The notes under the pieces are model-generated. The model made no database searches, was not told where the DNA came from, and saw nothing but the letters and a program-made list of their open reading frames with translations. Both the position numbers and the translations under genes were made by a program. A stretch of 64,000 nt of DNA from an uncultured Rickettsiales bacterium (GTDB lineage Bacteria; Pseudomonadota; Alphaproteobacteria; Rickettsiales; UBA1997): assembly GCA_944392135.1 (NCBI GenBank), contig CALXVQ010000002.1, positions 49,825-113,824 of the forward strand, written 5' to 3'. This document shows, piece by piece, positions 4,662 to 30,737 of this stretch. The number at the start of each line of letters is the position of its first letter. Position 1 is the first letter of the stretch.

Positions 4662-5882
4662 ATGTATAAACCAATACTCAAAAACACTTCTTGGGAGAAT
4701 ATTTCAAGGGCAGAATATGGAACAACCAGTCAAGCCAATAATCTTCAAAAACTAAACAATAAAAAAGACAATGGCGAAGTTATTGTTTATAGGGAAACGA
4801 ATTATAGTAGCGCCAATAGTGCAGAAAAGTTGAATCTAACAAACAACCAAGATATACATATTGAAATTAACAATTCAGAAATAGGACAGTTTATATCAAT
4901 AGATTTAATCCATTCAATTACAACAATTAAATCTGCTATATTATGCCTGTATAGAATTGATGATATAAAAATATTTGACAGCTGCAATATATATTATGGT
5001 AATAATAAAAATGCTAATAATCTCTTTTTAAAAGGCTATATTAAAAATATAATACCAACACTCAATTCAGAAAATAATTCATATATAGTTCAAATAAAGT
5101 CATATGCAGGAATACTTGTTGACAGTATAGTTCCACAGGAATTTGAATTTATCAATTCTAATCTAAAAGAAATTATAGAGCAAATATGCAGTGTCTATAA
5201 TATTAAGGTAGAGTTTAATCAAAACAACAAATATGATAAAAGTATTATTGAATATAAAATAAACAACGAAATAGACAATTCAGCATCCGCAAAATTAAAT
5301 GAGACCTGCTGGAGTTTTATAACAAGATTATGCAATTCAATGGGACTATTGGTTCAGGACAACGGAAATGGATCAATATATATTGGATCAATAAATAAAA
5401 ATGCAACCCAAAACTCAAAATATTCCTTTATATTCGGAAATAGTTCAATCTATAATTGGCTGCCAATTTATAACTATGACAACCTTGCAAGATATTATGA
5501 AATATATTCTCAATTCAACAGTAATTCAAAGGAGCTTATAACATTAGAGGCAATAAAACTTCCTATTACAAAAAGGATAATAAACAATGAAATAAACGAA
5601 GGCATATTGAAAGAATACGGAAATTGGATAGTATGCAGAGAAATAGGCAAAGCAATAAAATTGCAGATAGATATAAATGGAACTTTAAACAATAAAAACA
5701 TAAAAGAATTAGAAGTTGGAAACACCATAAACATACAGAACAAACTAATAGGATTTGAGAAAGAAACAGAAATGCTGATTGAAAGCAAGATAATAAATTA
5801 TCCAAATAAAATTACTTTAATTCTAACTCTGCCATGCACATACAATGGAGTTATTCCGGAGAAACTGCCATTTATGAACTAA
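4662..5882 (+). CDS. baseplate hub protein (Mu gp44-like) with N-terminal LysM/gpX-like segment
   Basis: SWENISRAEYGT...LQKLN N-terminus; LKEIIEQIC and ETCWSFITRLC motifs; synteny. Confidence 0.7.
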   Translation: MYKPILKNTSWENISRAEYGTTSQANNLQKLNNKKDNGEVIVYRETNYSSANSAEKLNLTNNQDIHIEINNSEIGQFISIDLIHSITTIKSAILCLYRIDDIKIFDSCNIYYGNNKNANNLFLKGYIKNIIPTLNSENNSYIVQIKSYAGILVDSIVPQEFEFINSNLKEIIEQICSVYNIKVEFNQNNKYDKSIIEYKINNEIDNSASAKLNETCWSFITRLCNSMGLLVQDNGNGSIYIGSINKNATQNSKYSFIFGNSSIYNWLPIYNYDNLARYYEIYSQFNSNSKELITLEAIKLPITKRIINNEINEGILKEYGNWIVCREIGKAIKLQIDINGTLNNKNIKELEVGNTINIQNKLIGFEKETEMLIESKIINYPNKITLILTLPCTYNGVIPEKLPFMN

Positions 5883-5926
5883 AAAATATTAAAGAATATC
5901 AATAAAAAAATAAAAGAAAGAAATAA

Positions 5927-6469
5927 ATGATAAAACTAACGATACTTGAAACATTTATAAAAAATACATTTAGAATTATAAAAGGAGAAACCTATAAAGA
6001 CATAATCCACCATGCAAAACAATATAGCAGTGGCGGAGATGACTACAGCCCGCCAAAGAATACTGAATGCATAGCCTCAACACTCAACAATAATGATTGT
6101 GAAACAGTTGTTATTCTATACAATGATAAAACAGCAAGAATATCTCAACCCGGAGAAAAGAGAATTTATTCAACAGACGAAAACGGAAAAGAAATAAAAG
6201 CAACAATACATCTAAAAAACAATGGGAATATTGAAATAACAGCAAATAATAATATTACAATAAATGCAGAAAACATAAATGCAACAGCAAAAAATATTGA
6301 GGCCACAGCAGAAAACATTAATATAAATTCAGAATGCAACATAAATGGTAATTGCAATCTTGGCGGAAGCGGCGGAATGCCGGTATTAACAACAAATACA
6401 GTAATATTGGATAGTTTAGGCAATCCCTGCACAATAACAAATCCAGCAATAAAGGTAAAGGCGGTATGA
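5927..6469 (+). CDS. baseplate spike protein (Mu gp45/gpV-like)
   Basis: PGEKRIYS motif, beta-helical INAENINATAKNIEATAENININ repeats. Confidence 0.8.
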   Translation: MIKLTILETFIKNTFRIIKGETYKDIIHHAKQYSSGGDDYSPPKNTECIASTLNNNDCETVVILYNDKTARISQPGEKRIYSTDENGKEIKATIHLKNNGNIEITANNNITINAENINATAKNIEATAENININSECNINGNCNLGGSGGMPVLTTNTVILDSLGNPCTITNPAIKVKAV

Positions 6470-10557: not shown

Positions 10558-11034
10558 ATGCTAAAATATGCAAAGATAATAAACAAAAAAACAAAACAAT
10601 GTCAAGTCGGCATTGGGACAGATGCAGAATACTATAAATCAATAAACTTCAAAGAGCTTGATGTTGAAAAAAGCTATGATGGAAATTGGTATCTAAAAGG
10701 CCATGCACCACATAAACCAATTGAAGAAGAATTGGAAGAATTAAAAGAAAATAAGAAAAAAGAACTAAAACAGGCAAGAGACAGCTATTTAAAACTTAAA
10801 AACTACAACCTAAGTGAAAATGATAAATTCAATATAATAAATTTATTAAATGATTATACCGAAGAAGACAGAAACAAATATGTTGAATTCCTTAAAAACG
10901 ATTTGATACCAAAATACAATAATTTTGATCGTCAAATAAACGAAGCCGATATTAATAGCATTGAAGAATTAAAAAAATTAGGATTTGACTTTATTGAAGA
11001 AATGGATTCTGAAGAAACAGATTCTAAAAACTAG
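10558..11034 (+). CDS. probable tail fibre assembly/chaperone protein
   Basis: DVEKSYDGNWYLKGHAP motif plus coiled coil; follows the tail fibre gene. Confidence 0.65.
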   Translation: MLKYAKIINKKTKQCQVGIGTDAEYYKSINFKELDVEKSYDGNWYLKGHAPHKPIEEELEELKENKKKELKQARDSYLKLKNYNLSENDKFNIINLLNDYTEEDRNKYVEFLKNDLIPKYNNFDRQINEADINSIEELKKLGFDFIEEMDSEETDSKN

Positions 11035-11050
11035 AAGACCAACCATTAAT

Positions 11051-11672
11051 TAGCAACTATCAACTATCAATTAGCAACTATCAACTAAAACCATGACCAA
11101 AACATTTGAAAAATATGAAAACCTCATATCAAGATTAGAAAATAAACTTGATGACAATATAGCAGCTACAAACGAAAGCATAAAATCAACCAATGAGAAA
11201 ATAGATAAAATTCTTGAAATACTCAATGAAAATCAAAGGGAACTAAACCGCCAGCACCATGATTTATATGGAAATGGAAAGAAAGGATTATTTGATGCAG
11301 TTGAAGAATTAAAGAATAATATAAATCAAAGAATATTGTCTATAAAAAAAGATGTAGACAATAATTCAAAACATATATGGAGCTATAGAGTTTTAGCAAT
11401 TTTTATAGCTTCAATATATCCAATAATTGAAATGGTTAAAAAGTTGATAGTTGATAGTTGACAATTGATAGTTAATTTAATTTTTTATAAAGTTTTAAAA
11501 TTATAAATTTTAAAACAAAAAATTAAAATTACTAAAATAAAAAAGTAAAAAAATAAAAAAAATAAAATAAAAAAATAATTGTCCGTAGGACATAATATAG
11601 AATTGTCAATTGTCCTTTGTCAATTGTCAATTATTAACTATCAACTATCAATTATCAACTATCAACTTTAAC
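11051..11672. repeat. heptamer arrays in opposing orientations around gene 11093-11461, with GTCC-GTA-GGAC mini-hairpin (11581-11591)
   Basis: caactat units at 11051-11087 and 11636-11672; atagttg units at 11441-11474; caattgt units at 11601-11631. Confidence 0.65.
11093..11461 (+). CDS. coiled-coil protein with C-terminal TM helix (lysis-region, XhlA/holin-accessory-like)
   Basis: Coiled coil, DLYGNGKKGL, single C-terminal hydrophobic helix. Confidence 0.5.
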   Translation: MTKTFEKYENLISRLENKLDDNIAATNESIKSTNEKIDKILEILNENQRELNRQHHDLYGNGKKGLFDAVEELKNNINQRILSIKKDVDNNSKHIWSYRVLAIFIASIYPIIEMVKKLIVDS

Positions 11673-11673
11673 T

Positions 11674-11901
11674 ATGTCAGTAGGATTATTCAAAGACACA
11701 GACGGCAGTATATCAAGCAGAATAGTGGCACTATTTGTAGTTATGGTATTTGATCTAATCATAATAGCATTAAGTACAATACTGCAAAAGGATATACCAA
11801 ACAATGCAAGCAATATATTGATTACAATAACCACATCTTGCATACCAGTGGCATTGGCAAGCCAGACCTATCAAAATATCAAAGAAAAAACTAAGGAGTA
11901 A
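11674..11901 (+). CDS. probable holin (2 TM)
   Basis: 75 aa, two hydrophobic helices, charged C-terminus, lysis context. Confidence 0.65.
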   Translation: MSVGLFKDTDGSISSRIVALFVVMVFDLIIIALSTILQKDIPNNASNILITITTSCIPVALASQTYQNIKEKTKE

Positions 11902-11904
11902 AAA

Positions 11905-12126
11905 ATGACAACAACAATTTGCATCTATTTAATAGCAAGTGCAGTTATAGCAATAACAAGCTATATATTAGGTTATACAAAAGGCAAACATTCCAAAGAG
12001 ATTGAAGTAATAAAAAATAACAACAATCTAAAAAGAAAATATGCAAACAATAGAAAATATAATAAAAAAGACTATATTAATAATTCTAATAGTCTTTCTA
12101 ACAAACTGCAGAACAACAAATATTAG
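11905..12126 (+). CDS. probable inner-membrane spanin (Rz-like)
   Basis: N-terminal TM helix then basic coiled coil; overlaps a lipoprotein gene in another frame. Confidence 0.6.
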   Translation: MTTTICIYLIASAVIAITSYILGYTKGKHSKEIEVIKNNNNLKRKYANNRKYNKKDYINNSNSLSNKLQNNKY

Positions 12127-12277
12127 CACAGCCTGTCCCGATATTCCGTTTTATAGCCAAGAAGAGCAATTGGAATTGGACAGAATCAGAAAGGAAGCAA
12201 ACAGCATGCTGCTTGATAAGGTTTTAATTGATTATGGAAACCTACGGGAAGATTTAAGAGAATGCAATAAAGAGTGA
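12041..12277 (+). CDS. probable outer-membrane spanin lipoprotein (Rz1-like)
   Basis: Signal peptide ending LTNC; ACP motif; overlaps preceding gene by 86 nt. Confidence 0.65.
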   Translation: MQTIENIIKKTILIILIVFLTNCRTTNISTACPDIPFYSQEEQLELDRIRKEANSMLLDKVLIDYGNLREDLRECNKE

Positions 12278-12295
12278 GAAATAACTAAAATAGTT

Positions 12296-12390
12296 AGGAA
12301 GAATATAAAGGTATAGAAATATAGCAATATAGGAATATAGGAACATAGAAGCATAAGAATATAGGAACATAAGAATATAGGATAGCATAT
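12296..12390. repeat. degenerate octamer tandem repeat (ATAGGAAT-like)
   Basis: atagaaat atagcaat ataggaat ataggaac atagaagc ataagaat ataggaac ataagaat. Confidence 0.7.
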
Positions 12391-12457
12391 AAACAAAAAA
12401 AGTGCTATATATAATATTGTATTATTATTTATAGCACCATAAAAAACTATACAGCAC

Positions 12458-12670
12458 TTATTCCATAAAAATAATATTGCTATTATCGCCTACCACTTTT
12501 AATAGATGATTGTAGTTGCCAGATTTAGCATCTTTTAGAAGCTTATCAATTTTTTTATTGGAAACTTTAGAATCCTTTAAATACTGTCTAAAAAGAGCTA
12601 AAATGTAGAAAGCATTTCCCTGCGGAGATTTAATGTCAACTACAATAGGTTCATTTATATTTTTAGTCAT
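12458..12670 (-). CDS. small conserved phage hypothetical protein (GNAF...SGxYxxLL family)
   Basis: SPQGNAFYIL and AKSGNYNHLLKVV motifs; AAGGTGA RBS; own promoter repeat. Confidence 0.75.
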   Translation of the reverse strand: MTKNINEPIVVDIKSPQGNAFYILALFRQYLKDSKVSNKKIDKLLKDAKSGNYNHLLKVVGDNSNIIFME

Positions 12671-12720
12671 TTTATTATCACCTTTACTTTTTATTAATAA
12701 TTTAAAAATACTTAATCTAA

Positions 12721-12803
12721 TTTAAACACCAACGAGATATTGAAACATATACCTCTAAGGTGTTTGTAGTATAACTTCAAAGGTTTCATTAGTCCAGTTA
12801 TTT
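12721..12803 (-). promoter_or_regulatory. repeat copy 1: sigma70-type promoter plus 5' hairpin
   Basis: TGGACT (12796-12791)-17 nt-TATACT (12773-12768), then AAACACC...GGTGTTT stem. Confidence 0.8.
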
Positions 12804-12896
12804 ATTGGATTAATCTTATACTTTTTAGAATTTTTTATTTGTTTTATTAATCTACATTAATTTAATTACTCATTAACAATCTTATAGGAGAAACTC

Positions 12897-13283
12897 ATGT
12901 TTAAATTCAGCACAAGATCAATACAACTGCTAAATACAGTTGATAAAAGATTGGGAATATTGGCAAATGAAGTATTAAAGATCAGCAAAGTTGACTTCGG
13001 AATAACAGAAGGATGGAGAAGCCAAGAACAGCAATTGAAATATTATAATCAAGGAACAAGCCAGTGCGATGGAATAAACAAAATAAGCAAACACCAAAAA
13101 GGAAAAGCAATAGATATAATATGCTATGACCCAAAGACAAACAAGCCAACCTATGATAAAAAAGAATTATATTATTATGTGGCAGGATTATTTGAAGGCA
13201 AAGCACGGGAACTTGAAATAGATATACAATGGGGCGGATGGTGGAGTTTGGAAGACTGCCCGCATTTTGAGTTGAAAGAATAG
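12897..13283 (+). CDS. endolysin, M15-family (L-Ala-D-Glu) peptidase
   Basis: EGWRS, SKH...AID and WGGWW..EDCPHFEL zinc-peptidase motifs; GGAG RBS. Confidence 0.92.
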   Translation: MFKFSTRSIQLLNTVDKRLGILANEVLKISKVDFGITEGWRSQEQQLKYYNQGTSQCDGINKISKHQKGKAIDIICYDPKTNKPTYDKKELYYYVAGLFEGKARELEIDIQWGGWWSLEDCPHFELKE

Positions 13284-13364
13284 GAAAAAGAATGAGAAAA
13301 AATAAAAAGAATAAAAAGAATAAAAAGAGAAAAAGAAATACAAAAAATAAAGATTTAAAAAATA

Positions 13365-13388
13365 AATGGGTCATATTAAAGACCCATT
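13365..13388. terminator. hairpin between convergent genes (probable terminator)
   Basis: AATGGGTC-8 nt-GACCCATT, A-rich on the left (U-rich on minus strand). Confidence 0.6.
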
Positions 13389-13408
13389 AACCTATATTTT
13401 AAATTGAT

Positions 13409-13660
13409 TTATTTATTTAAGTTATAAAGCAAAGTATCAATAGCCTCTTCAAGACTATCAAATAAATCTCCTTTTAAATTGTAACAAACACTAATAGAAC
13501 CATTATAGCTTCTAGAAACCATTTCTCTTATTATTCCAATAACTTCATTATCCTTTAATACTTCCATATCCTGTGATTTTATAGAATTGTCTTTAATTCT
13601 AACAATGCAATCACAGACATCATATTCATAAAATTTGTTTTCTTTATTATTATTTAACAT
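13409..13660 (-). CDS. hypothetical protein (83 aa)
   Basis: AGGTGA RBS and own copy of the promoter repeat. Confidence 0.65.
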   Translation of the reverse strand: MLNNNKENKFYEYDVCDCIVRIKDNSIKSQDMEVLKDNEVIGIIREMVSRSYNGSISVCYNLKGDLFDSLEEAIDTLLYNLNK

Positions 13661-13687
13661 TTTTTCACCTGATAATTATTATTAATT

Positions 13688-13770
13688 AAAAACACCTGCA
13701 AGACATTGATATTTATATCTCTAAGGTGTTTGCAGTATAGCTTCAAAGGTTTCATTAGTCCAGTTATTTC
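13688..13770 (-). promoter_or_regulatory. repeat copy 2: sigma70-type promoter plus 5' hairpin
   Basis: TGGACT (13762-13757)-17 nt-TATACT (13739-13734), same hairpin with G-U substitutions. Confidence 0.8.
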
Positions 13771-13805
13771 TATAACTTATTTAAGATTCTTTGGATATTT
13801 ATTTT

Positions 13806-13839
13806 TTAATGGGAACATCAAACTAGATATTCCCATTAA
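13806..13839 (-). terminator. 3' hairpin of the DUF3489 gene
   Basis: UUAAUGGGAAUAUC-loop-GAUGUUCCCAUUAA on minus strand; no clear U-tract. Confidence 0.45.
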
Positions 13840-13868
13840 TGTAAATTATAATTATATACTATTATATA

Positions 13869-14579
13869 TTATAAATTATTATCATCTTTATTATCGTCTT
13901 TATTATTATCTTTTTTACTGAACATATCATCTATTTTAAACAATGATATTAATGTATCATTTAAATCAAATTCACAATCCCTAATAAAATATCTAGTTTC
14001 TTTTTTAAAAGCCTTAGAACCATCATCTTTATTAAAAGCAGGCTTTGAAACATCAATGGTCAACAGACAAAATTCAAGTTCCTTTTGCATATTGGACATT
14101 ACCCCTCTTATTGATGCCCTTTTCCAACCAAGCTCTTTTTCTAATTCATCAAGAGTTGCACCTTCCGATCTTGACAGCATATCAAACAAAACAGAATTCT
14201 TTTTTACTTTCTTTTCTGGTTTAGCTTCTGCTTTACTTTCTTCTTTATCATCTTTTTTATCATCTTCTTTATTCTCTTCTTTATTTTCTTCTTTGCTATC
14301 TTCTTTTTTATTATCTTCAGAGAAATCTACATCAGCATCATCATTTAATTCAGTATCATTTAAAGTTGAATCGTTATCATCATTATCATCACCCAAAAAT
14401 TCACTACCGCACTCTTCAAGATAAGTTTCCATTTCTTCCTCATCAATATCATCATCTTCATTCTCAATATTAACATTTGAATTGATAGTCTTATTATTTT
14501 CTTCAACTTCTTTTAAATTAATTACTTCTTCATTATTGTTAATTTTTTCTAACATTTTTGAAAATTTGCTTCTAGCCAT
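13869..14579 (-). CDS. DUF3489-like winged-helix protein with long acidic N-terminal region
   Basis: MLSRSEGATLDELEKELGWKRASIRGVMS matches the DUF3489 motif. Confidence 0.8.
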   Translation of the reverse strand: MARSKFSKMLEKINNNEEVINLKEVEENNKTINSNVNIENEDDDIDEEEMETYLEECGSEFLGDDNDDNDSTLNDTELNDDADVDFSEDNKKEDSKEENKEENKEDDKKDDKEESKAEAKPEKKVKKNSVLFDMLSRSEGATLDELEKELGWKRASIRGVMSNMQKELEFCLLTIDVSKPAFNKDDGSKAFKKETRYFIRDCEFDLNDTLISLFKIDDMFSKKDNNKDDNKDDNNL

Positions 14580-14617
14580 TTTATTTACCTTTTTTTATTA
14601 ATAATTAAAATTTATAA

Positions 14618-14700
14618 TTTAAACACCAACGAGATATTGATATATCTATCTCTAAGGTGTTTGTAGTATAACTTCAAAGGTTTCATTAGTCCAGTTATTT
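14618..14700 (-). promoter_or_regulatory. repeat copy 3: sigma70-type promoter plus 5' hairpin
   Basis: TGGACT (14693-14688)-17 nt-TATACT (14670-14665), hairpin AAACACC-TTA-GAGATA...TATCTC-GTT-GGTGTTT. Confidence 0.8.
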
Positions 14701-14982
14701 CTTGCTTTTATTTCGCTTTTTATCCGATTTTTATATATCCAACAAACTCAATGTTTTAAAAGGATGGACGAATTATTTAGAAAAAAAGTATAAAAAAATT
14801 AAAAAAATAAAACAAAAATAGAATAAGAAATAAAATAAAAATAAGAGAAAAATAGAAAAAAATACAGCAAAAAACAATAAAATAAATATAGGAATATAAG
14901 TCAACAATATAAAAAACACAATAAAATATAATAAAAAAAATAAATCATAAAATATAAAAACATTTTAAAAAATAAAATTTAG

Positions 14983-15011
14983 TTGACTTTATAGGCAATA
15001 ATTGTTAAACT
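14983..15011 (+). promoter_or_regulatory. sigma70-type promoter upstream of cdiA
   Basis: TTGACT-17 nt-TAAACT. Confidence 0.6.
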
Positions 15012-15049
15012 TTAGGATGAATAACTATTAAAAGAACCCATAGTTATTT

Positions 15050-15310
15050 GAGGTGTAACGACCTTATTGCAGACGGTTCATAATATTTTGAGATTTATTA
15101 TATATGTATATATTTATATTAAGGTACATAAATAAAATAATATTCAAAACCGATAAAAATAACAAAGGTTTTTATTGCTGTTCTCACAGTGATAGAACCG
15201 GAGAGTGTGGCCATGTCCAGAACTCCGGTTTAATTACCTATTGTTTAAAATCCACTGACTGTTCTGCAACAGTATCGTTAACCTCCGGTTCACAGGGTTC
15301 TGAACCTTTT
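15050..15310 (+). promoter_or_regulatory. structured 5' leader of cdiA (candidate attenuator/riboswitch)
   Basis: GC-richer than flanks; AACCGGAG can pair with two CTCCGGTT copies; GGTTCA/TGAACC hairpin followed by T4. Confidence 0.45.
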
Positions 15311-15323
15311 GAGATATTATAAA

Positions 15324-18300
15324 ATGAACATTATAAAAGACAATCAACAGAATAACCAACAGAATAATAAAAATACTAATAAACATACCAATAAACTTAC
15401 AATATTTAAGCTTATAGAATCTTTGAAAACTTTTTTATCAAAAAATTGTATTTTTCTTGCATTTAACAAAAATTTAATATATCATATAATATATGTCTTT
15501 TTAGTTTTTACATCTATAATGCAAATATTTATTTTTAAATATTTTATATTTTTTTGTACAAAATTAAAGCATATTTTTAGTAAATATGTCTTTAGTAGAT
15601 ATATATTTAATAAAGGTAGATTTAATAAGTATCTTATTCTTTTAAAATCTTTTGGTTTTATTAACTTTTTAAATTCTAAAAAACTACTCTTAACAATTCT
15701 TTCCTATATCATAATATACTCCCAAATAACATTCTCCTTCATTATAACTCAATCAGTAGCCCAATCCATTATCTCAATAATATCTATAAAAAGAGCATAC
15801 GCCTTTAATGAGATAGTTCCCCCTCAAAACCTTCAAGATAACCCCATAAACCATATAACTCCCGATAACTCAATCAATATTCCCGGAACCAATAGCAACA
15901 CACACCTTGACCGTACTCAAAACGGCACTCCCGTTGTAAACATAAACAATGCTAATGCTGATGGTATAAGTGCAAACTACTATAAAGACTTTAATGTAAA
16001 TGAACAGAACCTTATATTAAACAATCATAAGGGTGAAAGTGTAAATACCCAATTAGGTGGAGTAGTATATGGCAACCCAAACTTCAATAATTCTAATGGA
16101 AGAGAAGCTGATATAATCCTAAATGAAGTTACCACAAACAGAGTATTCAATATAAATGGCTATATGGAAGTAGCAGGCAAGAGAGCGGATGTAATAATAG
16201 CAAATCCAAATGGTATTATGGTAGGTGGTGCAGGATTTATAAATACCAATAGATTAAGCATGATTACTGGAAAGTCTATTGATGGAACAACCAACTCATC
16301 CTTTAACCAAAACGGAGAACTAAACCCTTTCCTTCTCACCGACACCAACAAAAACCCCAACGCCATAATACAGGTAGTGGGTAGAAATATAACAGACAGT
16401 CAAGGAAGAAATATAGCCTATAATCTAGGTATAGATGCACAGGATGTTAGATATGCAGACCTTGTAAGTAGAGTAGTAAAGATAAATGGAAATATACACG
16501 GTGGAGATGGAAAGAACAATAAAAACAACATATCAACAGAAGTAAATATTAAAACTGGAAATGACAGAGCAGAATATAATAAAAAAGATGGTTTTAAAAT
16601 AAACAGTAGAGAAACCAAAGACCAATCTAAAAACACCATAAATGACCCACAGGATACAGATAGTACAGAAGAAGCCACTAAACCCGAATTCGCCATAGAC
16701 TCCACAGCCTTTGGCGGTATCTATGCAGGCAGAATCAACTTCATAGCCACAGAAGAAGGAGTTGGAGTTAGAACTAGAAGCGACCTTGTAGCAAGCACCG
16801 ATGATTTAAACTTTGATGTAAATGGAAATATTATACTTGAAGAAGAAGGGAGTTTGTATGCAAAGAACAATATAAACCTAAATAATAAAAACAATAATAG
16901 CAGTGAATCCAACAACCAGAACACCAACAGACAAATAGTAAATAACTCCTACATAGTTTCAGAAAATAACATAAATATAAACACAAATGAATTTATAAAT
17001 AGCGATGCAAATGCAAACACGAATCCCAACATCAAAAAACCATTAGTCTTTGCTGCAAACAATATAAATATTCAAGCGGACATAGCGGATAACTCAAATA
17101 CATTGATTGAAACAAACACAAACAACAATGAAACAGATATAAACAACAATAAAACAGACACAAACAACAATAATAATAACAACAGCAATTACTCCGGCAT
17201 AATCAGCAACAATGGAACAATAAATTTAAACATATCAAATACATTGAATAATAACAATGGAAATATACTTGGTAAAAATGTAAATATAAAATATATCTCA
17301 CCCATAGATAAAAAAAGCACTGCCCAACAGCAATTTCAAATTCAAACCAAATCACAAACTCAAAAATTATCAGATAAATCAATAAACCAAACAATAGTTC
17401 AATCAACAACCCAAACAGCAGACCAAACCACAGCACCATCTCTTCCAATATCAAATTATGGTGGAAACATTGTGAGTAATGATGATATAACAATAGATAT
17501 ATTGGCAGATTACATTATAACAGGAACAATATTCTCAAAGAATGGCAATGTAGACATAAATGCAAAGGATATAATAAACCTAAGTGATGTAATAGGTGGA
17601 AATAATATAACATTCACGTCCAACAATGGAAACATCTACAACGGAAGTGAAACAAATTCAAATGCAAATATAATTGCAATGAATGATGTAATATTTAATA
17701 TATTGAAGCAAGAAAATGATACTGGCAATCTCTACAACTACGGCAAAATCTCAGCAGGAAACAACATAGAAATAAATGCAGAAGACAGTGTCTATAATGG
17801 TCTAGCTACTGGAAGCAATGCAACCATCACAGCCAACAACAGCCTAACCATTACCGCAAACAACAGAATAATAAACAAAGGCTATATTCAAGCAACAGGA
17901 CTTACAGACCAAACCACAAGCAAAAAAATAGATGGAACGGGTAATTTAACATTAACCACAAAGGCAGAGATAAATAGTGATTATGAGCTAGGAAATAATA
18001 CTGCCAATGCAAATGCAAATACAAACACTAACCTTGATGATCTAAATAATAAAATCAACGGCAATGAAGATAAAACCCTATCGCCAGAAGTTCAATCTAA
18101 ATTTGACAATCTAAATAGTATAACCGATACAAATGAGCTATATGATCTAATACCACAGCTTAAAACAGAAGAACAATATTATCTTGTTAAAAACAGAATA
18201 CGAATATTAGCAATTAAAGAAACCCTAAATGATCTTGATGAACTTTATACATTTAATGAAGAGGACTGGAAAGATAAATCAGATGAAGAAATAAAAGAAC

Positions 18301-21300
18301 AGCTTCAAGGAATCTTTGGCAATAATTATGATGAAGAATTAGATAACAGTATAAATGGTGCATACAGCAATTATTTATCTCAAAGGGAAACAGAAATTGA
18401 TAATTTAATTGAACAACAGCTCATCAGAAAGCAAGAGGCAGAAGATAATAGCGAAGAATTTAATGAAACCCTATTGGACAAAAACAAACTAATGGCAGAA
18501 GCAGAGACAGAAGCCAATGCAAAGAAATTAGAAAAAATAAAAGATGAAATGGATTCTGAAAAGTCTAAGGTAAATAGATATCTAACCGACCTAAACAATA
18601 GCAACTGGGATTCCCTAACCAATGGACAGATTAATGAGAACCTTCAGGATATACTAAACAACAACTACATTGCTCAAAACTGGTCCATACCAGAATATCA
18701 AGCTGTTGATAATATAACACCTATTACAAACGAATATCTAGGAAGCTTAAGAATAAATGATAAAGACCTAAACGACCAAAATAAAAAAAATAAAATGGAG
18801 CAAACCGGTATACACAACTATGGAAGAATCTATTCAAATAACGATATGGAATTAAATTCAAATAGTGTACTCCATAATAATAAAGGAGCATTGATATATT
18901 CAAACAACAACATAAATTTCAACATAAACAAAGTTCTTTTTAACAACGAGAATGCACTAGGACAGGGAATATTCGCAAACAATGATATTAACATAAGAGG
19001 CTATTGTGATAAAAATGATACAGCATGCCAAACCAACATAGATAAATACAGCCAACACCCCTCCCTTGAAAAGCTGATAAACTATGATGGAAGAATAGAG
19101 GCAAATAACAATATAGACATAAAAAGCAATGAAGTAATAAACTATGGAAGCGACAGCATAGATTTAAGCAAAGTTGATACGGAAATCAAACCCATATACG
19201 ACTATTACTACACAACAAAAAGTGGATTCAGAACAAAAAAAACCTACATAACCAAAGAAGAATACGAAAGCAGAATAGCAAGTGGAAACAACAAAGATAA
19301 TTACGGCAGAACAATCACACTCGGCAAAACTTTCAAATGGTATGGAGTAGAAGAAACACCAGAGCTATTGCAGGCATATGGAACAAACTATAACTTCATT
19401 CAAAATGCAGGGCTATACCAGACAGTTCTAAAAGCCTACGACACCGCCTACTCAAAGGTTATATCAAATGAATCTGTTATACAAAGCAACAATGGAAACA
19501 TAAACATAAAAGCAAACAATACCACAAACTACAACACTGTATTATTCTCAAAGAATGATATGGCGATAGATACTAAAAACCTTCTAAACAAAAACCTAGA
19601 ATTCAATGTAAATGCAAACCAGTACTACCAATACCACGGCAAGAAAAAAAAATGGACAGGCCATGCAAAGGAATACTATGATGAATGGACTAGCCATGTA
19701 GTTTTAAACATAAAAGGCAGTAAAACAGCAAAGATACTGGCAGGAAATGATTTAGTAATATCAGCCAATGCAATAGGCAATGGGACAGCACAATCAAATT
19801 CAGACTATTCAAATAATTCAAATAGATTACCCTACACCCAACAGACAACACCACAAACCACAATTGAGGACCTGCTATCCAGCGGCATACTAAACCCGCT
19901 TGACAGCACACAGCTCCCACAGGGCAACTACGGCATATTCAGACAACCGCAGAACCCAAACTCAAATTATCTATTTGAAACAGATCCCACACTAATTGAT
20001 ACAAACAGGTTTTTAGGAAGTAAATACTTCATGAACAGACTAGGACTAGATCCAGACACAATAGATTTAAAATTTCTAGGCGACAGTTATTTTGAACACG
20101 AACTCATCAGAAAAGCCATAGAACAGCAAAGCCTATCAACAAACACCCATTTAGACCCACAACAAATAAAACAGCAAATAGACAACCTCTACAACTCTAT
20201 GACACAGGAAAAGGCACAACAGCTAAACCTAACCATAGGAGAACCACTAACAGAACAGCAAAGAGCACAGCTTACAGAAGACACCATATGGTATGTCAAA
20301 CAGGAAGTACAACTACCAAACGGCGAAACCATAGAATCATTAGTTCCACAAATATTCTATTGCAACACAACACTTGCAAGACTAGAACAAGAAAGAATAT
20401 TGAACACAGCGGGAAGCATGCTTGCCGGCACAAATGTAATATTACAAACAAAGCCAAACAGCACAGACAACATAAACAATACAGACAACACAGACGACAC
20501 CATCTTCAACACCATCCTATCCAACAGCGGCACCATAACCGCCAAAAACACATTAGCCATAACAGGCTTTGACACTATATCCAACGTAACCTCATCCATA
20601 AGAAACGATGACATAAACTCACTGTCACAGGACAAATTCAACAACCAAGCCACTCTAACTGCTGGAAATACACTTATTATAGACACAGGAGTTAATGGAA
20701 CTGTAAATAATTTGAGTGGGATGATTGCACTCAACAACACGAATGACAACACTTCATCAACCCAAAACAGTTTATACGACAATCTTCTTTATATAAACAC
20801 CGGGACATTAAACAACATAACATTATCTCAACAGGAAACAGTAGAAAAGCAAACCCACAGCAAAAAGAACGATTACGAATTCAGCAAAACCTCAACCTAT
20901 ATTGGAGACACAGCTGCAATACAATCAAGCAACAACAATTCAAATATAATAATAAATGCCAATGAGGACATAAACATACTAGGGGGAGACATAAAAACAA
21001 CAATAAAAGAACAAGACAACTCCAACATAGTCCTAAATGCAGGCAACAACATCAACATAGCTGCAATACAGGACTATGAATACCAAAGACAATACATGAG
21101 GCGAAAAGGTGGAACATTTGGCGAAACCTTAACCAAAGAGAACATAGACCAATCAGTTACCAATATACAATCCAATATATCAGCAGGAAACAATCTATCC
21201 ATAGCCACAGGAAATGATCTTAACTCCATAGGAACTAACTTTACTGCAAACAATGGAGATATAGATCTAAATATAAAAAATGATTTAAATCTTTATAATG

Positions 21301-22409
21301 CAATGGACTATGTATATGATTACGATTATACAAAGAGAGAATCATTTGACCTAGCATCCGCCATAGTTAATGTAGCAAGTGCAGTTGCAGTTGGAGCATT
21401 AACAGGAGGAGCAGGTGCAGCAGTTATGGCAGGAATAAGTGCAACAAGTAATGCAGCCGGTATGACCAAAGGATCAATAGACATAGAAACAAATTATGAT
21501 GAAACAATAGTTGCAAATAATATAACAGGAAATAATATTAATATAAATACAAATAATAGCCTCAACTCCATAAGTACAAAAATGAATACAGAAAACACCA
21601 TAAATTATAATATAGGAGGTAATTCATTTATTAGTGAGGCACAAGAAAGACATGAATATAAAATAACACATGAGGAATTCGGTGGAAATATAGGTAGGGC
21701 AGTATTAGGTGGTGCTATCACTGGTGCTATGAGCGGTTTAGGATTAAATGGAGGCAAATACTTAGGTAATTTAGCTAGTAGCTCTATTACTGATGGCATT
21801 TTAAATGCTAGCATTAATGGGGCAGTTCTTACTTCTGTAAATGCATATAGTTCATCAATAGGATCTGCGATGTCTCAAACTATATTAAATGGAGGAAGCT
21901 TTAAAGATGTATTAAAAGCAGGAAGAGATAGCTCAATAAGTCGTAATACATTAATGAATACTATGATTGGTGCCGTTATTGGTGCTACTGGCGGAGCTTT
22001 GGGTAAAGTTATTAAGGATGTAAAAGCTAAATATAATAGTTCTCTAACACAAGAACAAATACAAAATAAAATGACTGAAATACCAGTTGGGGAATCTAAT
22101 TTAAAGATTGGTAATCTAAATAATAATAAAGTCGGTATAAATTCTTATATTAAAGATGGAAAAATAATACAGGCTGGAACACTTAATATAAATGTTAATT
22201 ATTTTACAAGTAATCAAAACATATTTTTTAAGGCTTTTAATTTTTTACCTGGTTCGCCATCTTTTGCAGATTTTCACGATGCTTTGAATATAAGTGGAAT
22301 TTGGAATCAATTATCTATCCCATATGCTTATATGATAAGTCAATTTAATGCCCTATATCCATATTATCCATCACTTATATATTTTAACAATACGAAGGAA
22401 AACAAATGA
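15324..22409 (+). CDS. cdiA: TpsA/CdiA-like filamentous haemagglutinin exoprotein with C-terminal toxin domain
   Basis: TPS domain (NPNF, IIANPNGI), FHA repeats, YLFETDP...FLGS.YF region, Gly zipper, compositionally distinct C-terminus; start uncertain (TTG 15309/ATG 15324). Confidence 0.9.
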   Translation: MNIIKDNQQNNQQNNKNTNKHTNKLTIFKLIESLKTFLSKNCIFLAFNKNLIYHIIYVFLVFTSIMQIFIFKYFIFFCTKLKHIFSKYVFSRYIFNKGRFNKYLILLKSFGFINFLNSKKLLLTILSYIIIYSQITFSFIITQSVAQSIISIISIKRAYAFNEIVPPQNLQDNPINHITPDNSINIPGTNSNTHLDRTQNGTPVVNINNANADGISANYYKDFNVNEQNLILNNHKGESVNTQLGGVVYGNPNFNNSNGREADIILNEVTTNRVFNINGYMEVAGKRADVIIANPNGIMVGGAGFINTNRLSMITGKSIDGTTNSSFNQNGELNPFLLTDTNKNPNAIIQVVGRNITDSQGRNIAYNLGIDAQDVRYADLVSRVVKINGNIHGGDGKNNKNNISTEVNIKTGNDRAEYNKKDGFKINSRETKDQSKNTINDPQDTDSTEEATKPEFAIDSTAFGGIYAGRINFIATEEGVGVRTRSDLVASTDDLNFDVNGNIILEEEGSLYAKNNINLNNKNNNSSESNNQNTNRQIVNNSYIVSENNININTNEFINSDANANTNPNIKKPLVFAANNINIQADIADNSNTLIETNTNNNETDINNNKTDTNNNNNNNSNYSGIISNNGTINLNISNTLNNNNGNILGKNVNIKYISPIDKKSTAQQQFQIQTKSQTQKLSDKSINQTIVQSTTQTADQTTAPSLPISNYGGNIVSNDDITIDILADYIITGTIFSKNGNVDINAKDIINLSDVIGGNNITFTSNNGNIYNGSETNSNANIIAMNDVIFNILKQENDTGNLYNYGKISAGNNIEINAEDSVYNGLATGSNATITANNSLTITANNRIINKGYIQATGLTDQTTSKKIDGTGNLTLTTKAEINSDYELGNNTANANANTNTNLDDLNNKINGNEDKTLSPEVQSKFDNLNSITDTNELYDLIPQLKTEEQYYLVKNRIRILAIKETLNDLDELYTFNEEDWKDKSDEEIKEQLQGIFGNNYDEELDNSINGAYSNYLSQRETEIDNLIEQQLIRKQEAEDNSEEFNETLLDKNKLMAEAETEANAKKLEKIKDEMDSEKSKVNRYLTDLNNSNWDSLTNGQINENLQDILNNNYIAQNWSIPEYQAVDNITPITNEYLGSLRINDKDLNDQNKKNKMEQTGIHNYGRIYSNNDMELNSNSVLHNNKGALIYSNNNINFNINKVLFNNENALGQGIFANNDINIRGYCDKNDTACQTNIDKYSQHPSLEKLINYDGRIEANNNIDIKSNEVINYGSDSIDLSKVDTEIKPIYDYYYTTKSGFRTKKTYITKEEYESRIASGNNKDNYGRTITLGKTFKWYGVEETPELLQAYGTNYNFIQNAGLYQTVLKAYDTAYSKVISNESVIQSNNGNINIKANNTTNYNTVLFSKNDMAIDTKNLLNKNLEFNVNANQYYQYHGKKKKWTGHAKEYYDEWTSHVVLNIKGSKTAKILAGNDLVISANAIGNGTAQSNSDYSNNSNRLPYTQQTTPQTTIEDLLSSGILNPLDSTQLPQGNYGIFRQPQNPNSNYLFETDPTLIDTNRFLGSKYFMNRLGLDPDTIDLKFLGDSYFEHELIRKAIEQQSLSTNTHLDPQQIKQQIDNLYNSMTQEKAQQLNLTIGEPLTEQQRAQLTEDTIWYVKQEVQLPNGETIESLVPQIFYCNTTLARLEQERILNTAGSMLAGTNVILQTKPNSTDNINNTDNTDDTIFNTILSNSGTITAKNTLAITGFDTISNVTSSIRNDDINSLSQDKFNNQATLTAGNTLIIDTGVNGTVNNLSGMIALNNTNDNTSSTQNSLYDNLLYINTGTLNNITLSQQETVEKQTHSKKNDYEFSKTSTYIGDTAAIQSSNNNSNIIINANEDINILGGDIKTTIKEQDNSNIVLNAGNNINIAAIQDYEYQRQYMRRKGGTFGETLTKENIDQSVTNIQSNISAGNNLSIATGNDLNSIGTNFTANNGDIDLNIKNDLNLYNAMDYVYDYDYTKRESFDLASAIVNVASAVAVGALTGGAGAAVMAGISATSNAAGMTKGSIDIETNYDETIVANNITGNNININTNNSLNSISTKMNTENTINYNIGGNSFISEAQERHEYKITHEEFGGNIGRAVLGGAITGAMSGLGLNGGKYLGNLASSSITDGILNASINGAVLTSVNAYSSSIGSAMSQTILNGGSFKDVLKAGRDSSISRNTLMNTMIGAVIGATGGALGKVIKDVKAKYNSSLTQEQIQNKMTEIPVGESNLKIGNLNNNKVGINSYIKDGKIIQAGTLNINVNYFTSNQNIFFKAFNFLPGSPSFADFHDALNISGIWNQLSIPYAYMISQFNALYPYYPSLIYFNNTKENK

Positions 22410-22780
22410 AAGAGTTAAAAAAATTTAAATTTATTATAATTTTGCTATTATTGGCAGGCTGTAATGGTTGGACGAAAACGTGGTTTTATGAAGAATATAA
22501 TAATAACATTCTTTCAAATGAGATAAGAAAAATAGATTGGAAGCAGAACGGTAGTGAATATAAACAGTATTGTGTTTATTCGTTATCATATTTTTTACCA
22601 TTAAATTTTTGGAATGTAAAATTTTCCAATGAACAGTACGTAAAAAAAGCCATTAAAGATCTAAATAAAGATGGATTTAAAGGAGATAATATGAAGAATA
22701 TTTATATTAATAGTGAAGGTTTAGGAACACCTTTATATTCTTATTATTGTATAAAAATAAGTGGAGAAATAGTTGAATAA
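22406..22780 (+). CDS. candidate immunity lipoprotein 1 (TRL-like)
   Basis: Lipobox LAGC; ATGA overlap with cdiA stop; C...C-I-K-I-S-G end resembling TRL-like lipoproteins. Confidence 0.7.
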   Translation: MKELKKFKFIIILLLLAGCNGWTKTWFYEEYNNNILSNEIRKIDWKQNGSEYKQYCVYSLSYFLPLNFWNVKFSNEQYVKKAIKDLNKDGFKGDNMKNIYINSEGLGTPLYSYYCIKISGEIVE

Positions 22781-25700
22781 TATATCTATTATATCCATAA
22801 ATACAATAAAACCTCTCACCCCAACCCCTATCCCTCAAGAGGCGAGGGACTCTGACTTAGCAACAAACATTAACCTCAACATAGGCGGCAACATATCCAT
22901 AACAGAAACAGAGGAAAGACATGAATATCAAAAAACCCATGACACTTGGGGCGGAGATCTCGGTATGGCAGCATTGGGTGGAGCTATGACTGGACTTGCC
23001 GGTGGTTTAGGCATGGGTGCAGGAAATATGATTGGCGGTACTTTAAGTGGACTAGCCTTGTCAGGAGCATCAGCCTTTGGCTCTTCTAATGTAGGTGCAG
23101 TAATTTCAGAAAACAGGAAAGGAACATCAAACGGAACTTATACAACAAATCAAATAGGCAGTGATATAATAGCCTTAAATGATATTAATATAACCACAGA
23201 CAATAATTTAAATATAGTTGGAAGTGATTTGACATCCCTAAACAACACAACACTAAACTCAAACAATGGCAGTGTAAACATAACAACAGCAGTAGAAACC
23301 CAAACAACAGAACAAACCAAAACAAAAACCAACTGGGGAGGAATAGACTTTACACATACGAATAGTAGTGTGGGGGTTGGAGCAAGTATAGAAAGAAATA
23401 CCACAAGCAGCACAGCCACAACCCAATATGCAAAAAGCAGCAATATTCAAAGTGGAAACAATATTGCCATAAGTAGTGGCAATAATAATTCAAATAACAG
23501 TACAGACACTAATACCAAAAACAACAACCAGCAACAGGACATCAACATCATAGGTTCAAATATCTTGGCAGAAAACGACATAAAACTCAATGCAAATGGA
23601 GATAATGGAAATATTAAGATTATAAGTCAAGAACTTCTTCAAAACAAACTTGACAAGCAAAAGACTGAGGCTATTACGGCGAGTGTAGGGATAACAAACT
23701 ATTGGGCTAAAACCGCCGATCAAACACATAATCTGATAGACAATTCAAAAGGCGGTGCAAGAGACAGCAAAGAGGGCTATACAAACACATTCTTTGATTT
23801 AGGCAATATTGGCATATCAGTAATGAATGCTGCCGGCAGTCCATTAGGCTTTGGTATAAGTGCAGACATAGGCTATAATCTTATAGAAACAGAGACAGCC
23901 CAGAACAATACCTACAATCAAGAAAGTTCTATTGTATCAAACAAAGGCAGCATAGACTTAAATGCAGAGAACGATATAAATATCAAAGGTGCAGATATAA
24001 TTGCAAACAACGATGCACAAATAACTGCACAGAATGGCAATATAAACATTGATACAATAGAAGACTATAACTATAAATACCAGCATGCTGAAAGAAGCGG
24101 CGGAACATTTGGAACTACAAAAACTATGGATTCAATAGATGAAAGCAACAAAAACATTGGAAGCAATATTGTATCAAACAATGGAAGCCTGCACCTACAG
24201 GCAAATAGTTCAAACAACAGCACAAACAAAAACCTACAAACAGCAGGAAACATAAATATAAAAGGCTCAAATATAATGTCTGAAACTGGCGCAAATCTTG
24301 TGGCTGAAAATGATGTGAATGTATTTAGCAGTATTGATGCCAATAGAACCTACAGAAAAGTAGAAGAAGACAATAAATTTACAGGTGGAGAACTTGATAT
24401 AAATGAGAATATCACCAATACCAACAACTCCTCAAACATAATTTCAAACAATGGAGATCTAAACATAATATCAGGCAGAAATACAAACATAGTAGCAAGC
24501 AATCTGGTAACTGATGAAAGCGGAGACATAAACATTCTTGCTGGCTATATTGTAGACAAAAATACTGGAAATATAGTTCAAAAAACAGATAAAGATGGAA
24601 ACATAACAACAGGCTCTATAAACATCCTATCAGCCCAAGATCTTGAGAAGAACTATTCAAAGCACGAAGAATGGGGTGGAGTCTTTGACATGCTGACCAA
24701 CTTTGACATAGACTTTGATAAAGGCGGACTAACCCTAAGCACCAGCTACGAAGAAGAACTTGATGAGAACACCACACTTACAAAAACCGCAAAAACATCA
24801 AACCTAGAAGCTAGCAACGGAAATATAAACCTAAATGCTACAGAAAATATATTAAGTGTTGGTACTCAAATATATGCGAATAAAGACATAAACCTCAGTG
24901 CTGGCTACACTGAAACTAAAACAGATGAAGATGGAACCACAACTCAAATCAAACACAATGGCAACATAATTCTAGCATCAGCAGACAATAGTCAAACAAT
25001 AGACTCAAAACACGAAGAAACTACAGTAACTATTGGAGTTAAGGTTGGCAATAGCTTTGTGGATGCGGGATATGCAGTGGATGCAGTAGTAAAAGCCGGC
25101 GAAGAAGTAAAACATGCAAAGGATGAACTAAGTAGAATGAAAAAACTAAGAGACGAAGGCAAGGCAAGTGATAATGCCGTAAAGGATGCAGAAGTAAATC
25201 TTGCAATGGCTACTGCTAACCTTGCTAATTCAACACTTGGTATGGCAACTGCCATGGGAAGTGCAGCCGTAAGTACTCCAACAGGTGGTTTTTATGGAAG
25301 TGCATTCACAAACTATGATACGACCACCACAACATCAAACGAACAATCAACTTGGCAAACACAGGGCAATCTCATATCAAATAGCGGCAATATAAATTTT
25401 AACACCACAAATGATATGACACAGGAAGGAACTAACCTATATGCAAGCAATGATAATGGAACAGGAACAATAAACTACAATATAGGAAATGATTTAACAA
25501 TACAAGCAAGTAAAGATACCTACAAGGCGAATTCAAAAACAGAAAACACAAATGTTAATGCAAGCATAGGTACAAACGGATTTAGTATTGGCGGCGGTGG
25601 TGGCAGCTCAAAGAGTAGAACAGATAGCACGACCTATAACAATAGTGAAGTGCTTGCAAATAACATCAATATAAACACAGAAAACAATGCAAGCATAAAA

Positions 25701-27341: not shown

Positions 27342-27356
27342 TGAAATGGGAAAAGT

Positions 27357-28055: not shown

Positions 28056-28062
28056 ATAATTT

Positions 28063-28635: not shown

Positions 28636-28652
28636 AATAATATTATGTCAAT

Positions 28653-30556: not shown

Positions 30557-30737
30557 TGTAGTTAGTTATTGATTTTTGGAGCTTTAAAGTTGTCAAAATA
30601 TTAGTAAAATTATTATTTTATGGCATAATATAGTTTATGGAAATATATTTAGATAGATATATTCATATATAATAAATAAAACATTAACTAGTGAAAAATA
30701 TATAATATATTTATTTTTAAAAAATAGTATAATAAAA

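Follow-up and report, generated by a model that had tools for sequence, protein, structure and literature searches.

A repeated promoter-leader element precedes three antisense genes in the lysis region of a prophage from an uncultured Rickettsiales bacterium

Three antisense cassettes in the window

The stretch of DNA analysed here, referred to as the window, comprises 64,000 nucleotides (nt) from an uncultured Rickettsiales bacterium of the GTDB lineage UBA1997 (assembly GCA_944392135.1, contig CALXVQ010000002.1, positions 49,825 to 113,824 of the forward strand). In a contractile-tailed prophage within it, three small minus-strand genes are each preceded by a copy of the same element, a predicted promoter followed by a stem-loop, while all the other genes around the element are located on the plus strand. 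Each of the three genes possesses its own ribosome-binding site and a 3' hairpin, and the unit of element, gene, and hairpin is termed a cassette below. On balance, the repeats are probably copies of one portable promoter-leader module, by which single accessory genes become autonomous 'moron' cassettes. The cassettes and the lysis genes between them, with protein lengths in amino acids (aa), are as follows.

14602..14702, minus strand: module copy A, with the -35 hexamer TGGACT at 14688-14693, the -10 hexamer TATACT at 14665-14670, and the stem-loop at 14621-14662; covariance model score 112 bits
13869..14579, minus strand: 236-aa gene of cassette A, with an acidic low-complexity N-terminal half and a C-terminal DUF3489 domain (PF11994, 40.1 bits, cut-off 29.5)
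13806..13839, minus strand: 3' hairpin of cassette A, 14 bp, no U-run; -20.7 kcal/mol, z -4.4
13673..13771, minus strand: module copy B, with the -35 at 13757-13762, the -10 at 13734-13739, and the stem-loop at 13690-13731; covariance model score 105 bits
13409..13660, minus strand: 83-aa gene of cassette B, no convincing family match; one weak PHROG match, E 0.002
13365..13388, minus strand: 3' hairpin of cassette B, terminator-like with a U-run, convergent with the endolysin gene
12897..13283, plus strand: M15 endolysin gene, with antisense cassettes on both sides
12705..12805, minus strand: module copy C, with the -35 at 12791-12796, the -10 at 12768-12773, and the stem-loop at 12724-12765; covariance model score 104.4 bits
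12458..12670, minus strand: 70-aa gene of cassette C, phrog_1933, no assigned function
12400..12459, minus strand: 3' hairpin of cassette C, followed by U7; -14.6 kcal/mol, z -2.3
11905..12277, plus strand: overlapping i-spanin and o-spanin genes of the late/lysis operon (o-spanin 12041-12277)

The original prediction, made by a model from the DNA letters, had placed a repeated element upstream of these three minus-strand genes, and its coordinates agree with ours to within 3 nt. The 29-nt core TGGACT-N17-TATACT, which it had read in each copy, occurs three times in the window, always on the minus strand (12768-12796, 13734-13762, and 14665-14693), compared with none in 100 shuffles. Searched against the whole genome (1.19 Mb, 18 contigs), a 91-nt version of the element yields three matches, all of them in the window, and no Rfam family matches the region 11000-16000 of the window at E <= 1. 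The individual ribosome-binding sites and 3' hairpins were likewise found as described, with a U-run after hairpins B and C and none after hairpin A. Cassette C does part the spanins from the endolysin, being inserted between the o-spanin gene and the M15 endolysin gene.

Relatives of the element

A covariance model was built from 11 copies of the element and used for the search for further copies that had been proposed with the original prediction. Among 126 genomes of the family, the element is present in five, all from the genus designated g1, namely the source genome (G000) and four of the eight other g1 genomes; a metagenome scan added three contigs (L027, L028, and L029). Other G numbers below denote other genomes. 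In total, 14 distinct copies were obtained from five of the nine genus g1 genomes and the three metagenome contigs, with 1-3 copies per genome. All 14 are situated 5' of an open reading frame (ORF) and co-oriented with it, and 13 of the 14 ORFs belong to families that are found behind several copies. The downstream genes are distributed as follows.

DUF3489 protein: copies G000_A, G002_1, G005_1, and L029
83-aa family: copies G000_B, G002_2 (after an extra small ORF), and L027_a
60-aa family: copies G005_2, G005_3, G003, and L028
70-aa family: copy G000_C
111-aa protein: copy L027_b
35-aa ORF near a contig end: copy G006, which is diverged

Scans of IMG/VR for further copies gave one chance match, none in a second scan, and none by protein. 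A scan of genome contigs returned 15 loci, of which the two from G002 are real and 13 were dropped on inspection as chance 18-mers; weak blastn matches in G032 and G033 were also judged to be due to chance.

The three copies of G000, all within 2 kb, are the only ones in their genome and share 78-87% identity over the model alignment of approximately 100 nt (A-C 87%, A-B 83%), as would suit a recent local duplication without a function of its own. Such an origin is nevertheless very unlikely, given a module that is distributed over five genomes and three metagenome contigs, with copies of other genomes down to 59-69% identity with those of G000, and that, although the genes behind it differ, keeps its hexamers and their spacing, a pairing hairpin, and its distance to the ATG. 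The element is restricted to one genus, is fixed in its orientation and in its distance to the start codon, and retains its hairpin with compensatory changes.

Predicted promoter and leader layout

Of the 13 copies that contain the -35 hexamer, 11 read TGGACT, the exceptions being L027_b (TGGACA) and the diverged copy of G006. In the 13 copies, the -35 and -10 hexamers are separated by 17 bp without insertions or deletions, while the letters of the spacer vary by lineage. A functional promoter of the sigma-70 type would be expected to show such a fixed spacing with a variable spacer sequence. The hexamers of the window match the consensus at 9 of 12 positions, and 40 equally good sites are found compared with 29.8 expected in this AT-rich DNA. 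Because 9/12 matches are common in such DNA, the promoter call leans on conservation and not on the hexamer score.

From 5' to 3', the conserved blocks consist of GAAATRACTGGACTAATGAA over the -35 (often with a second GAAATAA-like word 5' of GAAATRACTGGACTAATGAA), the -10 (TATACT or TATTAT), ACAAACAC, the loop word ATATCAAT, the 3' arm of the hairpin, and ATTATTAATAAAAA together with the Shine-Dalgarno sequence. In copy A, the stem-loop is followed by an AU-rich spacer and then by the Shine-Dalgarno sequence. The distance between the end of the hairpin and the ATG ranges from 29 to 53 nt across the copies, and the Shine-Dalgarno sequences of the three cassette genes are of the AGGT type, positioned 6-8 nt 5' of the ATG. 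The earlier suggestion that one shared unit of predicted promoter and leader stands in front of each gene is supported.

Structure and covariation of the leader hairpin

The hairpin is 42 nt long and located 2 bases 3' of the -10 hexamer. An outer 5' arm, AAACACC, is followed by a 3x3 internal loop, an inner helix of 6-7 bp with a loop of 8-10 nt, and the closing arm GGTGTTT. The inner helix contains no G-U pair in copy A, two in copy B, and one in copy C, in agreement with the earlier statement that it stays paired through G-U swaps. The original prediction had also made itself dependent on conservation of this structure in homologues, and the structure is conserved. In the alignment of 14 copies, which was fitted to the covariance model and is hence biased toward structure, 87.3% of the cells form standard pairs, compared with 32-53% when the partners are slid by 1-3 columns. 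Both-sided changes exist in five of the 13 pairs (19 cells), and the covariation score was reached by none of 500 shuffles. At least four inner-helix sequences are distributed among the lineages: GAGATA/TATCTC; TGGATA/TATTTA; CGAAG/CTTCG or GAAGCA/TGCTTT; and CCAG.CA/TG.CTGG. A 1x1 mismatch of most G005-type copies is a pair in L027_b. Pairing is kept while the letters change, which argues for a nucleic-acid structure rather than a duplex recognised by a protein. The hairpin is probably within the transcript, since its stem opens at the predicted start or no more than a few bases from it. Initiation at the A predicted 7 nt after the -10 would place the foot of the stem precisely at the 5' end, in keeping with a 5'-terminal stem-loop.

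A hairpin so close to a promoter could alternatively serve as an attenuator or insulator, either as a promoter-proximal terminator that yields an RNA of approximately 40 nt unless antiterminated, or as a block to transcription arriving from upstream. Counted from the predicted initiating A, the stem is indeed followed by GUUUAAAUU, GUUUUUAAU, or AUUUAUAAAUU, and the stem-loops of the PeSL (promoter-early stem-loop) elements of T4-like phages are reported in PMC2839356 to act as terminators; a canonical terminator with the same arms (AAACACCG...CGGTGTTTTT) also occurs upstream of the DUF3489 gene of G004. Set against these likenesses, the terminator scan passes over all three leader hairpins, the U-tracts are interrupted as well as short, and the stems taken from +1 are weak (-8.6 to -9.4 kcal/mol in G000 and -2.1 to -14.1 kcal/mol in other copies). 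Furthermore, every cassette already ends in a 3' hairpin of its own, which closely precedes the next promoter, and no antiterminator was identified. A role of the leader hairpin as an attenuator or insulator of transcription appears unlikely.

The terminator of G004 is situated at L048:800-830 (G004:C9), has leader-hairpin arms of the G002 type, and lies upstream of a promoter-like site and the DUF3489 gene. This DUF3489 gene belongs to a different phage and has a ParB-methyltransferase gene behind it. When leader A (window 14579-14662, minus strand) is folded to minimum energy, the first five nucleotides, ACCUU, pair with the Shine-Dalgarno sequence AAGGU and not with the 3' arm. A general role of the 5' arm as an anti-Shine-Dalgarno sequence was considered and rejected, as this pairing appears in the fold of copy A alone and is absent in the other 11 leaders folded.

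Gain and loss of cassettes and probable homogenisation of module copies

The cassettes differ in position between related phages. In G002, the o-spanin gene is directly followed by the endolysin gene, without cassette C. In L027 (230-1300), the i-spanin and o-spanin genes, overlapping in G000, are parted by an antisense 84-aa cassette; a further cassette, with the 111-aa gene, follows the endolysin gene. In L028, the cassette adjoins a TpsA gene, as in G000, and in L029 the 70-aa family constitutes the third, last, and promoterless gene of a DUF3489 operon. A solo 60-aa cassette of G005 with an intact module (L039:1298-1602, G005:C115) is situated between an IS256-like transposase gene and asnB, outside any recognisable prophage.

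The module copies themselves group by genome and not by downstream gene. Copy A of G000 shares 81% identity with the orthologous DUF3489 copy of G002 and 61% with that of G005, while the within-genome values are 88% for G002_1 and G002_2 and 84% for G005_1 and G005_2. Since the genes behind them have orthologues in the other genomes, this likeness by genome points to copies that were homogenised through recombination with each other. Cassette gain and loss, as suggested earlier, is supported by the absence of cassette C in G002, the insertion in L027, the solo cassette of G005, and the clustering by genome, and the repeats may mediate it.

Single-gene cassettes bounded by imperfect palindromes, in which pairing and not sequence is kept, together with a large serine recombinase encoded in the same prophage, are also what would be seen if the repeats were folded single-strand recombination sites similar to the attC sites of integrons, or serine-recombinase sites, with an incidental likeness to promoters. 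We regard this as extremely unlikely. The element stands 5' of genes at a fixed distance to the Shine-Dalgarno sequence and ATG and has a conserved -35 and -10 at fixed spacing; the other cassette boundary carries no repeat, and there is no target duplication. The solo cassette persists away from any recombinase, and no integron-type integrase was recognised among the prophage ORFs scanned with PHROGs and Pfam, although no dedicated search was made.

Cassette proteins and 3' hairpins

Apart from DUF3489, the matches of the cassette proteins in Pfam, NCBIfam, and PHROGs are either unnamed or weak and sub-threshold. The 83-, 60-, and 111-aa proteins have no informative family match in Pfam, PHROGs, NCBIfam, or PADLOC. 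Searches of the PDB for function gave chance-level matches alone by sequence and none by profile, and in the protein atlas the 70-aa and 83-aa proteins fall in unnamed phage clusters alone. With tblastn against GenBank phages, there was no match for the DUF3489 domain or the 83-aa protein. The 70-aa protein is homologous to cje0217, known from Campylobacter prophage and phage records (CGC-2007 series, PC10); in phage PC10, the homologue is located two genes after a peptidase. G002 and L027 also encode homologues of the 83-aa protein behind a copy of the module.

The 3' hairpins of cassettes A (13806-13839) and B (13365-13388) have common arms, AATGGG...CCCATT, and both are kept in G002; this hairpin may be a second reused cassette part. 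Short-period tandem repeats also accompany the cassettes and lysis genes at 12312-12382, 13285-13351, 14781-14978, and 11601-11675 of the window. They include TATAGGAA in 8.9 copies, AAAAAGAAT in 7.3 copies, long A-rich arrays upstream of module A, and arrays of the 7-nt words AATTATC/TCAACTA before the holin-like ORF. At the matching place, G002 contains similar T-rich tracts.

DUF3489 and the anti-defence question

The original prediction had regarded the three genes as a co-regulated early set with a possible anti-defence function, controlled by the DUF3489 protein in the manner of anti-CRISPR (Acr) and anti-CRISPR-associated (Aca) proteins. All 45 DUF3489 family members examined match DUF3489, and the recurrent secondary matches are weak and restricted to winged-helix families (MarR_2, 9; HTH_IclR, 6; EarA, 5). 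As the weak secondary matches fall in such families, the winged-helix assignment is supported. The neighbourhoods of 59 DUF3489 matches were surveyed in 201 alphaproteobacterial genomes. For 31 of the 59, a DUF2924 gene is located 3' of the DUF3489 gene at a distance of up to 1 kb, and the two share a strand in 31/31; 11 more are at 1-25 kb; two of the 59 matches derive from the unpublished genome G189, without which the count is 30/57.

DUF2924 is described as a RAMA DNA-binding domain of mobile elements, and in a Wolbachia phage WO region a DUF2924 gene is followed by a recombinase gene (PMC11342252, PMC10299305). As in the usual DUF3489-DUF2924-serine recombinase modules, all three genes are encoded in this one prophage. 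Unlike in the usual adjacent order, however, the DUF3489 gene of G000 is located 21.5 kb 3' of the DUF2924 gene, in the order DUF2924, recombinase, DUF3489; it stands behind a promoter module of its own and encodes a protein with a long acidic extension at the N-terminus, and approximately 18.7 kb of two-partner-secretion genes intervene. In G005, about 150 nt separate the end of the recombinase gene from the downstream module that precedes the DUF3489 gene. Because 31 of the 59 matches adjoin DUF2924 and the prophage itself encodes DUF2924 and a recombinase, the DUF3489 protein looks like a part of an integration or lysogeny module and not like an anti-defence regulator.

In an Acr/Aca-like regulon, the small proteins would inhibit host defences, while DUF3489 would bind the inverted repeats and shut the promoters after an early burst. 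The combination of a helix-turn-helix (HTH)-type gene and small ORFans under one promoter with a palindrome speaks for such a regulon, as do the position of the cassettes beside the lysin near the integration end of the prophage, the long acidic N-terminal half of the DUF3489 protein, and the operon of L029, in which two small genes follow DUF3489. The types of hairpin and of DUF3489 also co-vary by lineage, though possibly through plain shared ancestry, and the host genome, which has a type I restriction operon as well as a Cas9 array, would offer targets. The tests run nevertheless favour neither an anti-defence nor an Aca-like role. No cassette protein has a convincing match in PADLOC or to a known function, although no screen against anti-defence proteins was run. 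The Cas9 array of G000 (C3) consists of 27 repeats and 26 spacers, and 0/26 spacers share at least 23 identical bases with the prophage. In the literature searched, DUF3489 occurs in a single paper, whose subject is not defence, and it is tied to no described Aca family; its place immediately 5' of DUF2924 in 31/59 makes it a core partner of serine-recombinase modules. In the element itself, the conserved half-sites are about 35 bp apart, and the inner helix keeps its pairing and not its letters, which recognition of double-stranded DNA by a protein does not explain. No other AAACACC/GGTGTTT pair exists elsewhere in the prophage, no CTGGACT word occurs at its early end, and the cassette genes of G000 form separate units, the operon form being found in L029 only. 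An Acr/Aca-like regulon is thus improbable, and this part of the original prediction, like the early timing, is left without support.

A broader proposal is that the module is a lineage-specific expression platform. The hairpin would then be a cis-acting operator, as RNA or single-stranded DNA, that co-evolves with DUF3489 or with the sigma factor of the extracytoplasmic function (ECF)-like type, and the genes, captured by recombination, would form a switchable, prophage-expressed regulon for superinfection exclusion or anti-defence. If true, PeSLs or integrons would have a counterpart in temperate phages that is governed by a regulator of its own, a prospect that we consider quite doubtful. 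Control by the ECF-like sigma factor of the phage was considered and rejected, since CTGGACT is absent in front of the plus-strand operons and the element is unlike ECF promoters.

The proposed portable module and its weighing

The portable promoter-leader module, which we favour, would extend over about 100-135 bp, roughly from -60 to the start codon, and contain the predicted sigma-70-type promoter, the stem-loop, the AU-rich spacer, and the Shine-Dalgarno sequence. Each copy would turn one small gene into an autonomous unit bounded by a 3' hairpin and read against the late/lysis operon of a temperate contractile-tailed prophage, which would extend from tRNA-Ser to the module of DUF2924 and the large serine recombinase. 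Host RNA polymerase would start about 7 nt after the -10 hexamer, and the hairpin may then form the 5' end of the mRNA, stabilising or insulating it. The genes could be expressed from the prophage or early in infection, while the opposing late operon is silent. The shared sequence of approximately 85-100 bp would act as a substrate for homologous exchange, by which cassettes may be duplicated, homogenised, moved, and deleted, as for PeSLs.

Several observations weigh against the portable module. Hexamers of 9/12 quality occur at background frequency in this DNA. The compensatory changes trace to about 4-5 lineages, and copies of the same genome are not independent of each other. At the fourth position of the outer stem, 8 of the 14 copies have a C.A or C.U mismatch, and a start at the predicted A would leave only 3-4 bp of the outer stem in the RNA. 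For the full hairpins, the sense RNA exceeds the antisense RNA in stability in just 7 of 14 cases; counted from the predicted A, it does so in 10 of 13. Hence, a role of the RNA is not cleanly separated from a role at the DNA level. Selection exerted by a binding factor specific to each lineage, instead of recombination, could also have made the copies of a genome alike.

Prophage context

Within the window, the plus-strand genes of the prophage include baseplate J, a tail fibre, the holin-like ORF, the overlapping spanins, and the M15 endolysin. Upstream of the window are genes for the ECF-like sigma factor, a replication initiator, three DNA methyltransferases, terminase, portal, protease, capsid, and sheath, and the prophage genes start about 750 nt after tRNA-Ser. 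The minus-strand genes of the prophage are DUF2924, the recombinase, DUF3489, and the 83-aa and 70-aa genes, the last two of which flank the endolysin gene. The ends of the prophage are marked by the following features.

L040:18542-18633: tRNA-Ser(CGA), at the left end of the prophage
33457-35607 of the window, minus strand: large serine recombinase gene (PF00239, PF07508, and PF13408), 50% identity to the G005 recombinase
35651-36280 of the window, minus strand: DUF2924 gene (PF11149)

The serine recombinase and DUF2924 at the right and tRNA-Ser(CGA) at the left therefore suggest a prophage of about 57 kb. An attachment repeat had been sought between the tRNA-Ser side and the region at 14.5-15.5 kb, which gave one 78% similarity over 50 nt that resembles AT-rich noise; this search was superseded because the recombinase was found 19 kb further right.

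Between the DUF3489 cassette and the serine recombinase, a plus-strand two-partner-secretion (TPS) cluster of about 18-18.7 kb (window 15309-33269) encodes a 2366-aa TpsA with a TPS domain, a 124-aa ORF, a 1522-aa hemagglutinin-repeat protein, an M23 peptidase, and an 843-aa transporter of the ShlB/FhaC type. Judged by its gene content, this cluster is possibly phage-borne cargo resembling contact-dependent inhibition. The first plus-strand gene of the prophage encodes the sigma-70/ECF-like protein of about 190 aa (L040:19339-19962, plus strand, equal to G000:C2:29339-29962), which matches TIGR02937 at E 4e-9, below the cut-off, as well as phrog_351 and phrog_1740. The three DNA methyltransferase genes are located at L041:3637-4782, 5108-6448, and 10691-11461, and one of them is fused to a ParB-like domain. 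Compared with the small cassettes, these methyltransferases would represent a more conventional route of restriction evasion.

Comparison with known systems

Morons are single genes with their own promoter and terminator, often antisense to the late operon and close to the lysis cassette, as in the case of lambda bor by the lysis genes. The cassettes described here resemble morons in being inserted between genes that are adjacent in a related phage (o-spanin and endolysin in G002; the split spanins in L027) and in their 3' hairpins, while their own promoter is a predicted one. To our knowledge, classical morons share no single repeated promoter-leader module; unlike them, the present cassettes have one such module in common.

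Anti-CRISPR operons combine an HTH autorepressor of the Aca or AcrIIA1 type with small ORFans. An HTH gene with small ORFans near the prophage lysin and a palindrome at the promoter are common to both systems. However, the genes of G000 each have their own promoter, and the palindrome is a 42-nt hairpin with covarying arms, located 3' of the -10 hexamer.

The 5' stabilisers of the ompA type are 5'-terminal stem-loops that stabilise bacterial mRNAs. The present leader is similar in its predicted stem-loop at or near the 5' end, followed by an unstructured AU-rich leader and a ribosome-binding site. It differs from them in that the first five nucleotides of copy A can pair with the Shine-Dalgarno sequence instead, and its start site is a predicted one.

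In the layout of its parts, the module resembles the PeSLs of T4-like phages, composites of a sigma-70-like promoter and a stem-loop that end in the Shine-Dalgarno sequence and start codon of an ORFan (Arbiol et al. 2010, PMC2839356). In both cases, a composite of promoter, stem-loop, and Shine-Dalgarno sequence is repeated in front of small ORFans in plastic parts of a phage genome. Also described are a PeSL subclass with the stem-loop just 3' of the -10 (PMC2839356, PMC4122927) and an exchange between copies that explains insertions, deletions, and replacements among related phages (PMC2839356; Comeau et al. 2014, PMC4122927). There are also differences. About 50 PeSL copies are described in phi1/RB49, concentrated in hyperplastic regions (PMC2839356), compared with 1-3 copies per genome here, a low number that also counts against the portable module. 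The present elements belong to a temperate prophage of an uncultured alphaproteobacterial genus, their cassettes run against the late genes, each with a 3' hairpin of its own, and their stem-loop, with its compensatory changes, is probably in the transcript.

Compared with these systems, the module looks like an ordinary type of phage unit for add-on genes and not like a new class of system. Since the host is an uncultured alphaproteobacterium with a small genome, the module is a candidate native promoter and 5' untranslated region for this group, and the 83-, 70-, 60-, and 111-aa families constitute a short list of prophage accessory genes. The locus would thereby provide a clean, small example, outside the lytic T4-like phages, of one promoter-leader unit reused for exchangeable accessory genes.

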